This document shows, piece by piece, positions 20,372-46,457 of a stretch of 64,000 nt of DNA. Numbering within the stretch: the first letter of the stretch is position 1; each line of letters opens with the position of its first letter. The notes under the pieces are model-generated. The model was given only the letters and a program-made list of their open reading frames with translations, made no database searches and was not told the origin of the DNA. Where the stretch lies: assembly GCA_963422735.1 (NCBI GenBank), contig OY730476.1, forward strand, positions 3,008,001 through 3,072,000. The letters are read 5' to 3'. This stretch comes from Candidatus Latescibacterota bacterium. Lineage in GTDB: Bacteria > Latescibacterota > UBA2968 > UBA8231. Both the position numbers and the translations under genes were made by a program.

Positions 20372-20470
20372 TGGCGGGAACGTGTGGGAATCGAACCCAC
20401 CCAGCGCAACTCTCGCTACGCCGCAACGGATTTGAAGTCCGCGACAGCCACCAGGCACGCATCCGCTCCC
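20372..20470 (-). tRNA. selC: tRNA-Sec (anticodon UCA)
   Basis: GGGAGCG...GCGGA-CTTCAAA-TCCGT, 9-bp variable arm with GAGA loop, GTGGG-TTCGATT-CCCAC, GCCA end; 99 nt. Confidence 0.92.
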
Positions 20471-42585: not shown

Positions 42586-43200
42586 ATGGTTCTGATGGAA
42601 GTCGAGAAGGTCTTAAGCAGCAAATCTCAATCTTTATACCCTGAAGTAGTACTCAAAGAAGTCGAAGGCAACTATTATCTTCACATTGTTATCGGCCGCT
42701 TCGAGGCTGCAGCCATTTCTATGGCCCACAGCAAGCGGCAACCCGTGCGCCCCATCAGCTATGACTTGGCCCATCAGATTCTCGCCAACGTCGACGCTCA
42801 GATAGTCCGGGTCGAAATCACTGACTTTAATTTACGCGAAAGAACGTACTACGCTGAGATTCACCTCGTCGACGACGAGGGTAAGACTCATACACTCGAC
42901 GCACGTCCCAGCGATGCAATTGCCCTAGCCTTGCGCTTTCGTGCGCCAATCTACGCCGCCATCGAGATTCTCAAAGAAGCGGGCTGTGTTCGCTCTGACG
43001 ATGATGAATGGATTACGGCTGACGTTGAGGCCATCGCCAAATCCGTGACCGCACCGCAAGAAGAGCATCCTACCATCGCCGCACCAGCCGTCAATCAGCT
43101 AGAACAACTCAAAAGACGCATGAATCAAGCCATTGCCGAAGAAATCTACGAGGAGGCGGCGCGGCTTCGCGACGAGATTAGTCGTCTCAAACAGGGATGA
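42586..43200 (+). CDS. Bifunctional nuclease (DUF151/BFN) domain protein with UVR coil, paralog 1
   Basis: IGRFEAAAI, RPISYDL, YYA, DARPSDAIALALR, EIYEEAARLRDEI. Confidence 0.9.
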   Translation: MVLMEVEKVLSSKSQSLYPEVVLKEVEGNYYLHIVIGRFEAAAISMAHSKRQPVRPISYDLAHQILANVDAQIVRVEITDFNLRERTYYAEIHLVDDEGKTHTLDARPSDAIALALRFRAPIYAAIEILKEAGCVRSDDDEWITADVEAIAKSVTAPQEEHPTIAAPAVNQLEQLKRRMNQAIAEEIYEEAARLRDEISRLKQG

Positions 43201-43886
43201 TTAAGGGAACTTCCTCTTTAGTCGAGATGACCGTAGTCAAGGTTAGCCCCTATTTGCGCGAGGACAGGCCCTTAGTATGGTTGAGCGAGAAGAATGGGAA
43301 ACTCCCACGGCTCCTGCCCATTCCGATTGGAGAATTTGAAGCAGCCGCCATTCAGATGCGGCTAGAAAACGATGGGCCTATACGCCCGATTTCCTACGAC
43401 TTGCTCTCTTCTATGGTCAACAACCTTGCGATACGTATGCGCCAAGTTGTCATTCACAACGTGCGCCGCTCAATTTACTACGCGAGGGTCGTCATTGAGA
43501 AGAATCACACAATAAAAGACATTGACGCACGTCCCAGCGACGCAATCGCTTTGGCCTTGCGCACTGATTCGCCTATCTACGTTTCTCAAACGTTGCTTGA
43601 CGAGGTGGGCTTGGAGCCTTTGGAGACCGACTTGGACGTTGAACACATACTGAATCGCTTCTACGAGTTTGAGGCGCAGATTTCTAAACCGCTCAATACG
43701 GCCAACATCCGTCCACCGAAGCGGAACGCCGAAGAGGCCGAAGCTCAACTGCCCTCCAAAGAAGAGAAAGACGAACTCGGCCTGCTTCAGCACCAGCTAC
43801 AGCAGGCCGTTATCTGCGAAGAATACGAAGAAGCTGCCCGGCTACGCGACGCCATCGAATTGCTCGTTAATAAAGCCAAGCACTGA
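43197..43886 (+). CDS. Bifunctional nuclease (DUF151/BFN) domain protein with UVR coil, paralog 2
   Basis: LPIPIGEFEAAAI, RPISYDL, DARPSDAIALALR, EEYEEAARLRD. Confidence 0.9.
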   Translation: MIKGTSSLVEMTVVKVSPYLREDRPLVWLSEKNGKLPRLLPIPIGEFEAAAIQMRLENDGPIRPISYDLLSSMVNNLAIRMRQVVIHNVRRSIYYARVVIEKNHTIKDIDARPSDAIALALRTDSPIYVSQTLLDEVGLEPLETDLDVEHILNRFYEFEAQISKPLNTANIRPPKRNAEEAEAQLPSKEEKDELGLLQHQLQQAVICEEYEEAARLRDAIELLVNKAKH

Positions 43887-43908: not shown

Positions 43909-44403
43909 ATGAAGTTGCTTAAGATACTGAGCCGTGCGCTGCACACTATGGCCCTACAACCCTTCCTTTGCCTCGCCCTTTTCATTCTTCACGGCTGCCA
44001 TAGCGAAGAAGCAGATCAACGCTTCGCCCATCCGGCCCAGACCTTCCAGACCTATAAGTACGCGCTAGAAAACAGCGACTTTGACCTGCTTTGGGAATGT
44101 TTCAATTCTTCGCAAATGGAGGGAGAAGATCGTCAGAGCTTTGTCGAACGATGGCGGCAAAAGACGCCAGCCGAGATAAAGGCTCACCTGCGGCGAGAAA
44201 TCGCCGAAGAGCGCATCATCAACGAGCGCATAGGTTACTTACTCTTCGATTCTTCTACGCTAAGCGATGAGCGCGCTTCGCCATTTTTTTATTTTCTTCG
44301 CGATTCGAGTGGTTGGAGAATCACTTCTCACCTAGACAGCACCTTCCACCAAGAGTTAGAGCAAGCCATTGAGCGCGGCGAGTATAAATTACCCGATTTC
44401 TAG
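43909..44403 (+). CDS. Hypothetical lipoprotein
   Basis: Lipobox LHGC; start 43909 or 43948. Confidence 0.65.
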   Translation: MKLLKILSRALHTMALQPFLCLALFILHGCHSEEADQRFAHPAQTFQTYKYALENSDFDLLWECFNSSQMEGEDRQSFVERWRQKTPAEIKAHLRREIAEERIINERIGYLLFDSSTLSDERASPFFYFLRDSSGWRITSHLDSTFHQELEQAIERGEYKLPDF

Positions 44404-44978
44404 CCTCTTCCCTCCCAACTGGGAGGCTCTAAGTTCCAAGTCCCGATTATGCCCATTATCATATCCCACTGTTTGTCGTCCATCGCCTCTACTAGAGCGA
44501 GGAGGCGCAGCACATCGCGTTCCTTCTGTTTCTTGCGCGCTTGGGCAACTGCCTCTAACCACGGTTGATCCCCGAGCAGAGCCAAGATTTCTGGATTAGA
44601 GAGCACTCCCAAGAGGGCCGGATCCAAAGGATCTTCGCTAGACAGGAGCTTATTAATCACTGGGTCCAACAGCGAGCGCATCATCTTGCCATAGAGAGCG
44701 CGTCCTTCCTCCGAACCCGCCTTAGCCTCATAAGCAGCAATCAACACTCTGTTAGAGTCGAGTTCCAATACCTCGGCCAACTTGATACATACTTCGTCGG
44801 AAGGAACCTTCTCCGCCCTCTCAATTTGTCCTATATAGGTTGCCCATACGCCCTTAGGCCTTCGCGCTGTCACGAGTTGCTCGGCCAATCCTTGCTGACT
44901 CAGGTGGGCTTGTAGCCGGGCCTCCTTGATCATTTCTGCAAACTGCATTCGCGGTTCCTCTGAAGTATTTTCAACCAT
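44400..44978 (-). CDS. XRE-family HTH transcriptional regulator
   Basis: IKEARLQAHLSQQGLAE...YIGQIER.EKVPS..V..KLAEVL; start uncertain (44990/44978/44948). Confidence 0.85.
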   Translation of the reverse strand: MVENTSEEPRMQFAEMIKEARLQAHLSQQGLAEQLVTARRPKGVWATYIGQIERAEKVPSDEVCIKLAEVLELDSNRVLIAAYEAKAGSEEGRALYGKMMRSLLDPVINKLLSSEDPLDPALLGVLSNPEILALLGDQPWLEAVAQARKKQKERDVLRLLALVEAMDDKQWDMIMGIIGTWNLEPPSWEGRG

Positions 44979-45006
44979 CTTCTCCGTCATCTTCTCCGTT
45001 AAAATA

Positions 45007-45028
45007 TGCACACACCAGTAAGTGTGCA
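45007..45028. promoter_or_regulatory. Palindromic operator TGCACAC-N8-GTGTGCA
   Basis: Perfect 7-8-7 inverted repeat just upstream of the XRE gene; core repeated at 45073-45088. Confidence 0.65.
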
Positions 45029-45066
45029 AGGCTCCGCTTTGGTTTTCTACGCACATGTTTTTCTAC

Positions 45067-45095
45067 TTGACAACACAATCTAGCGTGTGTATGTT
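45067..45095 (+). promoter_or_regulatory. Sigma70-like promoter with embedded ACAC-N8-GTGT operator
   Basis: TTGACA-N17-TATGTT; ACAC(45073)-N8-GTGT(45088) in the spacer. Confidence 0.65.
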
Positions 45096-45101
45096 TATTT
45101 C

Positions 45102-45300
45102 TAAATAGAGTGTGGCGGTCCGCTAGCGTGGCCAAAGTCCTGATCCGCGAAGCTCGGATTTCCCTTTTCGGGTCGTTGGGATCTTCAAAACTACCTCCCC
45201 ACACCGCCTCGTTTGAGGATCTCACTTGCGTTTCAAGATCACACCATCTGGCCGCCACACTCTTTAATAAGCAGCCCATTTTTAGATGGGCTGCTTTTTT
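45102..45300 (+). ncRNA. Candidate structured small RNA (family not recognised)
   Basis: 14-bp closing stem 45107-45120/45250-45263; 13-bp stem 45177-45189/45212-45224 with 22-nt C-rich loop; flanked by promoter and terminator. Confidence 0.65.
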
Positions 45301-45308
45301 ATTTTATT
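45269..45308 (+). terminator. Intrinsic terminator
   Basis: AAGCAGCCCAT-ttttag-ATGGGCTGCTT followed by TTTTATTTTATT. Confidence 0.8.
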
Positions 45309-45341
45309 CTTTACACCGATTCCTTTACACACCTACACACC

Positions 45342-46457
45342 ATGCGTATTTGTATGGTCGCCTTCACCGACCTGAATTTCGACTATCGCATCTACCGAGA
45401 GGCCACTTCGCTGCGTCGTGCTGGTCACCAAGTCGTCATTGTCGCCGCCTCGTTCAATCTAGCACCTCTCAAGGGATGGGACGATTTTGAAATCTATCCA
45501 ATTCCGCTAGATCGAAGCCGCTCACTGCGCCGCCTCTATCCTTTATTTTGGCAACAAGCCTATCCACTGCTAGTCGATACCCATCCGGATGCCTATCACG
45601 CCCACGATCTAGACTCGCTCTGGCCAGCAGTGCGAGCTGCACAGCGACTAGGTCTGCCCATCGTCTACGACTCGCACGAATTTTGGACCGAACAATCCTC
45701 ACTGGTCAACCGGCCACTGATGCGGTCCTGCTGGAGTTTGCTGGAACGGCGGCTGATAAGACGGGTAGATCGCGTCATAACCGTCAGCGGGTCTATCGCC
45801 CAATCACTTAAGGAGCGTTACCGTCTCGACGAGGTTGTTGTTCTGCGCAATTTGCCGCTATTCCGCCATAAGGTCCAAAGCAACCTGATACGCGAAACGC
45901 TGGCCCTGCCCGATGATTGCCCTATTGTGCTCTACCAAGGAGGATTCCTCACCGAAAATGGCTTGCGCGAGCAAATTGAGGCCGCTGCTGGGTTTGCCGC
46001 CGCCCTAGTTCTGATTGGGGATGGACCTAGCGAACAGGCCCTGCAGAACCAAGTCCGCGCTGCCGGGCTAGACGATCGGGTCTATTTTATTCCCCGGATG
46101 CCCTTTCACCAGCTTCACAATTATACTTGCTCGGCCGACTTAGGGTTGTGTCTGATCAAAGGCACGGGTAAGAGCTTCTATTACTCTCTGCCCAACAAGC
46201 TCTTTGAGTATATGATGGCTGGGCTACCGGTCCTAGCCAGCAACTTTCCTGAAATGCAACGCATCGTCCGCGAAACGCGTGCCGGAGCTACGGTCGATCC
46301 AACCGATATAGCTGCCATTCGAGAGCAGATCACCGCTTTTTTGGACAATGCAGAGCTGCGAGAGGCCTGTGCCAAGGCAAGTCTGCAAGCGGCACAACAC
46401 TATAACTGGGAACGGGAAGCCGCCCAACTCACCCAGCTTTACGCAACCCTAGCATGA
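45342..46457 (+). CDS. Glycosyltransferase family 4
   Basis: D.RIYREA.SL, HAHDL, VYDSHE, SLPNKLFEYMMAGLPV. Confidence 0.92.
   Translation: MRICMVAFTDLNFDYRIYREATSLRRAGHQVVIVAASFNLAPLKGWDDFEIYPIPLDRSRSLRRLYPLFWQQAYPLLVDTHPDAYHAHDLDSLWPAVRAAQRLGLPIVYDSHEFWTEQSSLVNRPLMRSCWSLLERRLIRRVDRVITVSGSIAQSLKERYRLDEVVVLRNLPLFRHKVQSNLIRETLALPDDCPIVLYQGGFLTENGLREQIEAAAGFAAALVLIGDGPSEQALQNQVRAAGLDDRVYFIPRMPFHQLHNYTCSADLGLCLIKGTGKSFYYSLPNKLFEYMMAGLPVLASNFPEMQRIVRETRAGATVDPTDIAAIREQITAFLDNAELREACAKASLQAAQHYNWEREAAQLTQLYATLA

Follow-up and report, generated by a model that had tools for sequence, protein, structure and literature searches.

In a 64,000-nucleotide stretch of Candidatus Latescibacterota DNA (the whole of which we call the window), the plus strand between positions 45107 and 45265 encodes a structured RNA that is a genuine small RNA (sRNA) of a new family, with an architecture backed by covariation. 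This molecule, referred to below as the large RNA, presents a 22-nucleotide C-rich loop that is complementary over 17-18 nucleotides to the 5' end of a second, separately encoded and G-rich small RNA. On balance, we think that the large RNA is probably a new base-pairing sRNA which stands under the control of an XRE-type repressor and is paired with an anti-sRNA or sponge. The locus had been singled out in an earlier note, made from the letters of the window without database searches, as an unannotated RNA with its own promoter, two long stems, a C-rich loop on the inner stem, a near-duplicate of one stem arm and a terminator with a U-tract. When the sequence was re-read, the promoter, both stems, the loop and the near-duplicate were all in place; the terminator was likewise present, with a stem of 12 rather than 11 base pairs, six of them G-C.

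A conserved and covarying RNA of a new family

The window sits in a single 4.95-Mb contig (C1) of its own genome, which we call G000. Within the window, the large RNA is made up of the following elements.

45107..45265, plus strand: core of the structured RNA, 159 nt; matched by covariance model R1 with 193.6 bits
45107..45120, plus strand: 5' arm of closing stem P1; pairs with 45250-45263 over 14 bp, one of them G-U; present in the minimum free energy (MFE) fold
45250..45263, plus strand: 3' arm of closing stem P1; pairs with 45107-45120
45152..45173, plus strand: hairpin A, a 7-bp stem with a conserved C-rich loop, TTTCCCTTT
45177..45224, plus strand: hairpin B, a 13-bp stem (45177-45189 with 45212-45224, two G-U pairs) that presents a 22-nt loop
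45190..45211, plus strand: C-rich apical loop of hairpin B, 22 nt, ACTACCTCCCCACACCGCCTCG; proposed interface with the G-rich partner sRNA

In its consensus structure the RNA has the shape of a Y, in which a rod of four helices, consisting of the closing stem P1 and three short helices, ends in a three-way junction with two hairpins. The core measures about 160 nt, and the RNA reaches about 200 nt once the terminator hairpin is included. The MFE fold of the plus strand contains both the outer and the inner stem and has an energy of -79.8 kcal/mol, as compared with -51.6 +/- 4.1 kcal/mol for shuffled sequences (z -6.9; 0 of 200 shuffles as good). Both C-rich loops are predicted to be accessible, with mean unpaired probabilities of 0.99 for the loop of hairpin A and 0.90 for the 22-nt loop.

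A 251-nt query taken from the locus identified DNA that is 83-95% identical in 22 of 24 other genomes of the window's genus, and nothing in the 16 genomes of other genera that were searched alongside. Model R1, which was built from 23 sequences of the same genus, found one full-length copy each in 51 of 132 genomes of the class. These genomes all belong to one family, f1 (50 of its 75 genomes together with the window's own), in which they are spread over 14 genera, and no match was obtained in 56 genomes from three other families of the class. In a phylum-wide sample, R1 matched 40 of 63 genomes of f1 plus the window's own, and none of 87 genomes from 13 other families, although the stricter Infernal filters used throughout mean that weak relatives may be missed. 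Judged by these matches, the large-RNA family is confined to a single family of Candidatus Latescibacterota among the genomes searched. The 22-nt loop is, within the window's genus, invariant save for one C/T position.

The covariation analysis used 50 sequences (48 of them distinct) aligned by fitting to R1, an alignment that is hence biased towards the structure. Across its 49 pairs, which amount to 2333 cells, 95.9% are standard pairs, and 30 of the 49 pairs have changed on both sides (111 cells). Not one of 500 shuffles reached any of the pairing measures of the alignment, and controls in which the 3' partners were slid by 1-3 columns had 37-51% of cells paired (maximum 50.6%) and 8-15 pairs changed on both sides. 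With compensatory changes on this scale, the structure is conserved in relatives, a check that the earlier note had proposed. The changes are not evenly spread over the molecule: in hairpin B (helix 6), nine of the 13 pairs have changed on both sides and 97.7% of cells are paired; hairpin A (helix 5) has 97.3% of cells paired over seven pairs; and in P1 (helix 1), where 96.4% of cells are paired over 14 pairs, the conservation of the sequence is unusually high, two pairs being invariant and seven varying on one side only. Two species (L014/G022 and L019/G001) carry a 10-nt tandem duplication, GGCCGCCACA repeated, in the 3' arm of the closing stem, aligning to 45250-45263.

Since the minus strand folds almost as stably as the plus strand (z -5.9), folding energy alone cannot pick the strand. 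We assign the RNA to the plus strand because of the orientation of its promoter and terminator, together with the excess of G-U over A-C pairs and the strand scores of R1. The argument from G-U pairs had first been made for the stems of the window, and it extends to the family alignment, which contains 328 G-U cells versus 34 A-C cells; R1 scores 41.6-197 bits on the plus strand and produced three matches on the minus strand of 21-27.5 bits.

The near-duplicate of the 3' arm of hairpin B (45210-45225 versus 45229-45244, 13 of 16 positions identical) had been thought to allow an alternative pairing of the stem. For this we find only moderate support, with 73% of cells in the alternative helix paired, compared with 35-49% in slid controls.

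In a search of the whole window against Rfam at gathering scores, only a selenocysteine tRNA and one other tRNA were recovered, with nothing at the locus of the large RNA. At E<=10 over positions 44950-45400 (451 nt), eight sub-threshold matches appeared, all of them on the terminator or the flanks. That no Rfam family matches the large RNA agrees with its initial description as a new family. Divergent forms of the signal recognition particle (SRP) RNA, RNase P RNA and transfer-messenger RNA (tmRNA) can be ruled out, as all three are found elsewhere in the genome, and so can a bacterial Y RNA, given that G000 has no TROVE/Ro protein (PF05731) and that there was no Y-RNA-like match in Rfam. Because it is conserved, covarying and covered by contigs from RNA libraries, as described below, the feature stands beyond chance.

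Expression in field samples

Of the words sampled from a 2.3-kb query, fifteen runs recorded as RNA contain a small share (0.05-0.11), which is about the size of the large RNA alone. Four of them, from four studies (X2, X5, X9 and X12), were compared with the locus as Logan contigs, for which depth is a single figure per contig, the depths of related organisms are summed, and strand and ends are not resolvable. The depths over the RNA core and over the two genes beside it (an XRE-family gene and a glycosyltransferase gene, both described below) were as follows.

RNA core, 45147-45223 (summed contig depth): X2 133714; X5 2558; X9 901; X12 1231
XRE gene bins: X2 13-35; X5 0-142; X9 0-7; X12 0-38
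Glycosyltransferase gene bins: X2 4-72; X5 7-58; X9 0-3; X12 0-17

The core of the RNA was covered by contigs in all four runs; in X9, for example, a 206-nt contig with a depth of 873 spans 45128-45241 with two differences. A transcript from this locus had been predicted, and the metatranscriptome contigs cover its core at depths far above those of the flanking genes. Between 44993 and 45069 there was no contig in the four runs, which we do not use as evidence, as contigs cannot show absence. While contig depths are not a measurement of expression, they give strong support for the view that the large-RNA family is highly expressed in field samples, and in the samples examined the large RNA seems to rank with these bacteria's most abundant transcripts.

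One contig of X2 (depth 11796) joins position 45253 back to 45126 with five extra letters between them. This could be an assembly artefact, a variant with a duplication in the 3' arm, or a permuted or circular form; we have treated it as an artefact or duplication variant.

A G-rich partner RNA encoded elsewhere in the genome

A search of G000 for the reverse complement of the 22-nt loop returned a single extended match between genes, on the minus strand at G000:C1:3817743-3817764, with 15 exact bases, or 17 pairs when one G-U is counted. A gene similar to that for glucose-6-phosphate dehydrogenase starts 45 nt downstream of this site; we take it to be zwf on the strength of its N-terminal translation rather than a family search. 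The element that surrounds it has the predicted anatomy of an sRNA gene.

G000:C1:3817722-3817775, minus strand (outside the window): G-rich partner sRNA of about 50 nt, with predicted promoter, 5' hairpin and terminator

The promoter is of the TTGACA type with a 17-nt spacer, the 5' hairpin displays a 6-nt loop, GAGGCG, and a terminator hairpin is followed by a T-run. In the terminator, five of ten pairs have changed on both sides and 99% of cells are paired. The partner stretch of about 49 nt stands out as a conserved island: its identity remains at 87-100% even when another genus is compared, separately from the match to the zwf coding region, while its flanks diverge. It was present at all 39 of the 39 loci compared. 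In most cases the partner precedes zwf; in four genomes of the genus (G013, G110, G109 and G007) the gene that it adjoins is a different one. The invariant portion of the partner is just the part that is complementary to the loop of the large RNA. Rfam gave only four sub-threshold matches at the partner locus.

A model of the partner, R2, detects it at E<=1e-5 in 51 of 76 genomes of the family. Weaker matches (around 3e-5) fall, as would be expected, on the strand opposite the loop of the large RNA, and weak candidates in G089, G119, G126, G082, G094 and G103, which resemble coding sequence or chance matches, were left out of the count. Words similar to the loop in family f4 and genus g13 were set aside as unrelated, lying as they do inside a conserved coding region. 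With thresholds of E<=0.01 for R1 and E<=1e-5 for R2, the 76 genomes of the family divide as follows.

Both RNAs: 44 genomes
Large RNA only: 7 genomes
Partner only: 7 genomes
Neither: 18 genomes

None of the seven genomes with the partner only exceeds 89% completeness. In G084, in G088 and, as a second type, in genus g16, we saw variant or additional G-rich RNAs whose flanks differ around the same complementary core. In genus g16, three loci (L141-L143, in G099, G104 and G102) hold a second, longer G-rich RNA-like element, in which a word of 16-17 nt is perfectly complementary to the loop and is followed by a strong terminator.

Complementarity between the loop and the partner

The loop and the partner seed were compared in a register of 18 positions across 45 genomes that carry both RNAs (G088 being added by motif). 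Pairing is retained in 45 of 45, with 15-17 Watson-Crick pairs and 0-2 G-U pairs among the 18 positions, and ten distinct combinations of loop and seed occur. In 41 of the 45 genomes the 18-nt loop core is identical. One change affects both sides, a C to T in the loop of G095 and G096 that is met by a G to A in the seed, and four single transitions all yield G-U rather than A-C. The predicted duplex has an energy of -38.5 kcal/mol, versus -16.5 +/- 3.3 kcal/mol for shuffled partner seeds (minimum -32.2), and in the window's genus it can reach past the loop, taking in 6 nt of the 3' arm of hairpin B. The loop of the partner, GAGGCG, has a predicted unpaired probability of 1.0. Co-folding of both full RNAs with RNAcofold gave a net -2.9 kcal/mol; as the program has no way of forming a helix between two molecules inside a closed hairpin loop, this figure is not used as evidence. 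Taken with the accessibility of the loop, these comparisons suggest that the 22-nt C-rich loop is a base-pairing interface.

Several observations weigh against pairing as the function of these motifs. The motifs are nearly invariant, so that intermolecular covariation comes down to one double change, that is, a single event seen in two genomes; and since both loci carry the same 17 bp of DNA, this change would equally fit a shared protein-binding DNA motif. In G086 and G087 there is a mismatch, U to A, that is not compensated. Taken in one genome alone, the exact complement of 15 nt lacks significance, as 19 of 150 shuffled loops have a match of that length or longer somewhere in the genome. 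Seven genomes have the large RNA and lack a confident partner, and the co-occurrence counts are confounded by phylogeny and are not independent. Strong complementarity to the loop is not in excess at translation-start regions. Finally, the expression evidence for the large RNA consists of contigs, which resolve neither strand nor ends, and the partner is known here from its sequence alone.

The first of these points leads to the alternative that the 17-bp sequence common to both loci is a protein-binding DNA motif, recognised by the XRE-type regulator or by another factor, with the RNA being real and its loop conserved for some other reason. The two loci do contain the same double-stranded sequence in opposite orientations, the 'compensatory' change of G095 and G096 is the same DNA change at both, and the loop complement is not significant in the single genome. 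Moreover, the 5' hairpin of the partner, read as DNA, is an inverted repeat, CACAC-N6-GTGTG, which resembles the CACAC-N8-GTGTG palindromes of the promoter region described below, and the motif holds a GTGTG half-site. The spacing of the half-sites nonetheless differs, being N6 in the partner and N8 in the promoter palindromes. In addition, the motif lies about 85 nt inside the large transcript, where it coincides precisely with the loop of hairpin B, whose 13-bp helix has nine covarying pairs; the four single transitions between the copies all give G-U and not A-C; and in other genera the partner variants move the complementarity along the loop or lengthen it, leaving no fixed DNA word. Because the loop sits on a covarying helix, GAGGCG stands in a loop of its own, the substitutions favour wobble pairs and the variants slide, we favour pairing between the two RNAs and regard a DNA motif as unlikely.

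Promoter, palindromes and a divergent XRE-family gene

The region upstream of the large RNA contains the following features.

45067..45095, plus strand: sigma-70-type promoter, TTGACA-17-TATGTT, agreeing with the consensus at 10 of 12 positions
45073-45090: palindrome ACACA-N8-TGTGT, inside the promoter spacer
45009..45028, unstranded: palindrome GCACAC-N8-GTGTGC, candidate operator, upstream of the promoter
44400..44993, minus strand: XRE-family helix-turn-helix gene, divergent from the RNA; the open frame extends as far as 45056, with a probable start at 44993 or close to it

A promoter of the form TTGACW-N16-18-TAnnnT precedes the large RNA in 48 of 50 loci, and within the genus its spacer is invariant. 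Of the 50 loci, 46 have a palindrome of the form ACAC-N6-12-GTGT in the 200 nt that precede the RNA, as compared with none of 50 control windows, and in 43 of the 50 it falls inside the promoter spacer. The second palindrome lies upstream of the promoter in the window's genus, and a similar one lies downstream of the promoter in other genera. This shift in its position relative to the promoter indicates that the palindrome at 45009-45028 most likely acts as DNA.

The distance from promoter to RNA core is 9-12 nt in most of the window's genus versus 44-124 nt in other genera, where the primary transcript is therefore longer, or processed. An extra segment of about 35-115 nt between promoter and core, often with a CACAC...GTGTG hairpin or palindrome, was noted in L020-L023 and in most loci of other genera; it is missing from most species of the window's genus.

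The XRE protein matches Pfam HTH_3 (1.3e-7) and HTH_31 (3.2e-7) over its N-terminal part only. Its C-terminal portion of about 110 amino acids (aa) has no family match, and no relative by sequence was found among solved structures. Among the 21 loci from other genera, 15 have an ortholog of the gene beside the large RNA; in the remaining six its place is filled by an open reading frame (ORF) for a HEAT-repeat-like lipoprotein. In L061, L066, L067, L068 and L071 this ORF, of about 150-190 aa, lies between a homologue of hyp164 and the RNA, the type of repeat having been judged by eye. The four promoter-bearing loci that lack the palindrome (L066, L067, L071 and L073) are all among the six without an adjacent XRE gene. 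From this joint absence of palindrome and gene, we infer that the XRE protein most likely represses the promoter of the large RNA through the palindromes.

A model for the pair

In the model that we propose, the large RNA would be transcribed from its near-consensus sigma-70 promoter, an XRE-type repressor would bind the palindromic operator in the promoter spacer, and transcription would stop at the strong intrinsic terminator. The two hairpins at the end of the rod each expose a C-rich loop, as the covariation shows, and the 22-nt loop would pair with the 5' hairpin of the partner. Recognition would probably begin as a loop-loop contact between CGCCTC in the large RNA and GAGGCG in the partner, and this contact would then extend into a duplex of 17-22 bp. 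Since neither Hfq nor CsrA was found in the genome, long pairing that is independent of a chaperone would fit this organism. The outcome may be mutual titration, or each RNA may trigger the decay of the other, so that the two act as a regulator and its anti-sRNA or sponge; either could be the effector. Its extra conserved structure and its abundance suggest that the large RNA may have a further partner, whether a protein or mRNAs, with the small RNA as its dedicated antagonist. Refolding of the large RNA upon binding of the partner is also conceivable, through the partly conserved alternative helix.

A switchable or 6S-like RNA as a possible alternative

Two more far-reaching readings build on this last step. 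According to one, the large RNA would be a global regulator of a new class that can be switched: an abundant scaffold, possibly standing in for 6S RNA, whose activity is reset by a 'key' RNA encoded in the genome. The key would first make a loop-loop contact with the apical loop; by then invading hairpin B on its 3' side it would release the 5' arm, and the freed arm would form the alternative helix and refold the rod. We give this proposal a low probability, similar to that of the DNA motif. A narrower version, in which the large RNA is a housekeeping RNA that sequesters a protein in place of 6S RNA and the small G-rich RNA is an encoded signal for release or reset through refolding, seems to us slightly less probable still.

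6S RNA consists of a long irregular duplex, opened in its centre by a large bubble in imitation of an open promoter; RNA polymerase holoenzyme binds it and uses it as the template for short product RNAs. The 6S model (RF00013) matched neither the window's own genome nor any of 132 genomes of the class, whereas SRP RNA, RNase P RNA and tmRNA were all found, so that no other 6S candidate is detectable in the class; RF01685 (6S-Flavo) had no match in the window's own genome. The large RNA resembles 6S RNA in its length class, its single copy, its long closing stem and its apparent high abundance, the depth per contig being very high in the RNA libraries. The complementarity to the partner extends into the 3' arm of hairpin B, and the alternative helix that a freed 5' arm would form is partly conserved, as described above. 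On the other side, no 6S model has a match at the locus even at E<=10 over the 451 nt searched, and the architecture differs from that of 6S RNA: the molecule is a rod with a forked end, in which the 22-nt unpaired stretch is the apical loop of a hairpin and not the central bubble of a long duplex. A dedicated promoter controlled by an operator is atypical of 6S RNA, R1 found no homologue in the sister families, and the short complement is encoded in the genome rather than templated by the RNA itself. The suggestion in the earlier note of an atypical 6S RNA as the main alternative is thus not upheld, there being neither a model match nor a central bubble.

Complementarity to translation-start regions

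The C-rich loop had at first been taken for a seed that blocks ribosome-binding sites. Part of this idea has stood, in that the loop has the look of a C-rich base-pairing interface; the part that has not is the target, as no excess of start-region targets was found and the conserved counterpart is a second small RNA. Among 4641 start regions, which were crudely called, the loop has 24 sites at or below -25 kcal/mol, as compared with a mean of 40 for 12 shuffled loops. Neither flanking gene stands out as a target: of the 4641 start regions, that of the glycosyltransferase gene ranks 2213 for the partner seed and 4201 for the loop, and that of zwf ranks 4344 for the seed and 2955 for the loop.

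It could still be argued that the C-rich loops serve mainly to mask Shine-Dalgarno (SD) regions of mRNAs, with the complementarity to the small RNA incidental or secondary. SD motifs are used in this genome, with a peak near -11 and, by a crude estimate, presence at 1273 of 3478 starts versus 360 in a background window; the 3' end of the 16S rRNA has CCTCC; and structure prediction leaves both C-rich loops of the large RNA unpaired. C-rich regions are known to pair with SD regions in the sRNA RoxS. The top start region is that of an FN3-like lipoprotein gene (G000:C1:432951, -30.8 kcal/mol), which has TGGGGAGGTAG at the SD position and GAGGCG 11 nt upstream of it, both complementary to the loop, and of 26 aligned orthologues in the genus, 22 have kept the SD word intact. 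Shuffled loops nevertheless do as well or better, not only in the number of sites but also in their best energy, which averages -33.1 kcal/mol against -30.8 for the real loop. The 5' untranslated region (UTR) of the lipoprotein gene is conserved throughout and not just in the complementary words, and SD masking on its own leaves the invariance of 18-22 nt unexplained. We therefore judge that masking of SD regions is quite improbable as the main role of the loops, and treat the 5' UTR of the lipoprotein gene as only a lead to a possible target. Its almost complete invariance within the genus (G000:C1:432860-432950, L211) is recorded here as an observation in its own right. In addition to pairing with its small partner, a free C-rich loop may conceivably mask G-rich ribosome-binding sites.

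Terminator and downstream gene

Two features follow the core of the large RNA.

45269..45303, plus strand: intrinsic terminator, a 12-bp hairpin (6 G-C) at 45269-45296 followed by a T-run
45342..46457, plus strand: family-4/group-1 glycosyltransferase gene; Pfam Glycos_transf_1 (1.5e-21) and Glyco_transf_4 (1.6e-21)

By inspection, 19 of the 21 loci from other genera have a hairpin and T-rich run 3' of the large RNA; the sequences of these hairpins are mutually unrelated. With a predicted promoter of its own in 48 of 50 loci and a terminator-like hairpin in 19 of 21, the large RNA qualifies as an independent transcription unit.

That it should instead be a cis-acting leader, either a riboswitch or an attenuator, of the downstream glycosyltransferase operon is the least probable of the readings weighed here. 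Such a role would suit the short distance between the two, the glycosyltransferase start being less than 100 nt from the end of the large RNA in 18 of 21 loci of other genera, as well as the placement of the terminator between RNA and gene, for which no clear separate promoter or SD sequence was seen; the conserved unpaired nucleotides around the three-way junction are also reminiscent of an aptamer. The whole neighbourhood is, however, syntenic, which makes the adjacency weak evidence, and RNA and terminator are kept in three loci without an adjacent glycosyltransferase gene (L059 has no such gene, L065 has it at a distance of 274 nt, and L070 at 1.6 kb). No conserved anti-terminator pairing with the invariant 3' arm was seen by inspection, without a formal search, the terminators are unrelated between genera, and the locus matches no riboswitch or other cis-regulatory family of Rfam. 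Because RNA and terminator persist without the adjacent gene, and no conserved anti-terminator was seen, we favour a trans-acting RNA over a cis-acting leader, with the downstream gene possibly a target of read-through from the promoter of the large RNA.

In L070 (G096), the 1.6-kb insertion between the RNA and the glycosyltransferase gene holds an ORF that is, by eye, transposase-like (of insertion-sequence type). The genes 3' of both sRNAs lack an SD sequence, and an A/C-rich stretch containing ACAC precedes the ATG of each (45305-45341 in the window; G000:C1:3817700-3817721 for the partner).

Relation to known pairs of small RNAs

Two systems with a comparable logic have been described. In cyanobacteria, Yfr1 and Yfr2 are separately encoded, conserved sRNAs with ultra-conserved single-stranded motifs that are nearly complementary, and one of the two interferes with the binding of targets by the other (PMC6778093); Yfr2 is reported to be under a dedicated transcription factor (PMC6191309). 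The likeness is one of two separately encoded sRNAs with conserved, complementary single-stranded motifs, known in our case from sequence. The differences are that no Yfr model scores above its threshold here (Yfr10 reaches 20 bits versus a gathering score of 43, and on the terminator only), that the C-rich member in Candidatus Latescibacterota is a 160-nt RNA with a three-way junction and not a short one of about 60 nt, that the complementary motif is longer (17-18 nt), and that the phylum is another.

In Bacillus subtilis, RoxS, a member of the RsaE family with C-rich loops, is reported to be countered by a second sRNA, RosA, which has a complementary G-rich sequence (PMC8216469). Both systems combine an sRNA with a C-rich loop and a complementary G-rich sRNA. 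The large RNA has no match to the RsaE/RoxS family of Rfam, it differs in size and fold, and here it is the G-rich RNA that is the small and simple one; the test for enrichment at SD regions, moreover, was negative for the loop of the large RNA. Both RNAs described here thus appear to be new families that fall outside the Yfr, RoxS/RosA and 6S families.

The arrangement of the promoter region has parallels of its own. The sRNA genes oxyS, gcvB and sgrS are each divergent from the gene of their regulator (OxyR/OxyS, GcvA/GcvB and SgrR/SgrS), so that in these pairs, as at our locus, regulator and sRNA stand head-to-head with an operator in the shared control region. The regulator at our locus is of the XRE type and has an uncharacterised C-terminal part, there is no homology to those systems, and the operator is a predicted one.

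Other features of the window

The selenocysteine tRNA gene recovered by Rfam lies at 20376-20470 on the minus strand (RF01852, 70 bits), and from its presence the organism probably uses selenoproteins. Two adjacent and overlapping ORFs of 204 and 229 aa occupy 42586-43886 on the plus strand; they are alike, and both end in a similar acidic motif, EEAARLRD.

Implications for Candidatus Latescibacterota

Candidatus Latescibacterota is without a cultured model, and our search of the literature on it found no paper on its small RNAs. The locus yields two new RNA families, together with a predicted promoter and operator and a concrete RNA-RNA interaction that is open to study in vitro without culture of the organism. 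Because it is apparently among the most abundant transcripts of these bacteria, the large RNA probably matters for their physiology. If the proposed pairing is true, then in a distant phylum without a detected Hfq the two RNAs would be an independent example of mutual titration by a pair of conserved sRNAs.

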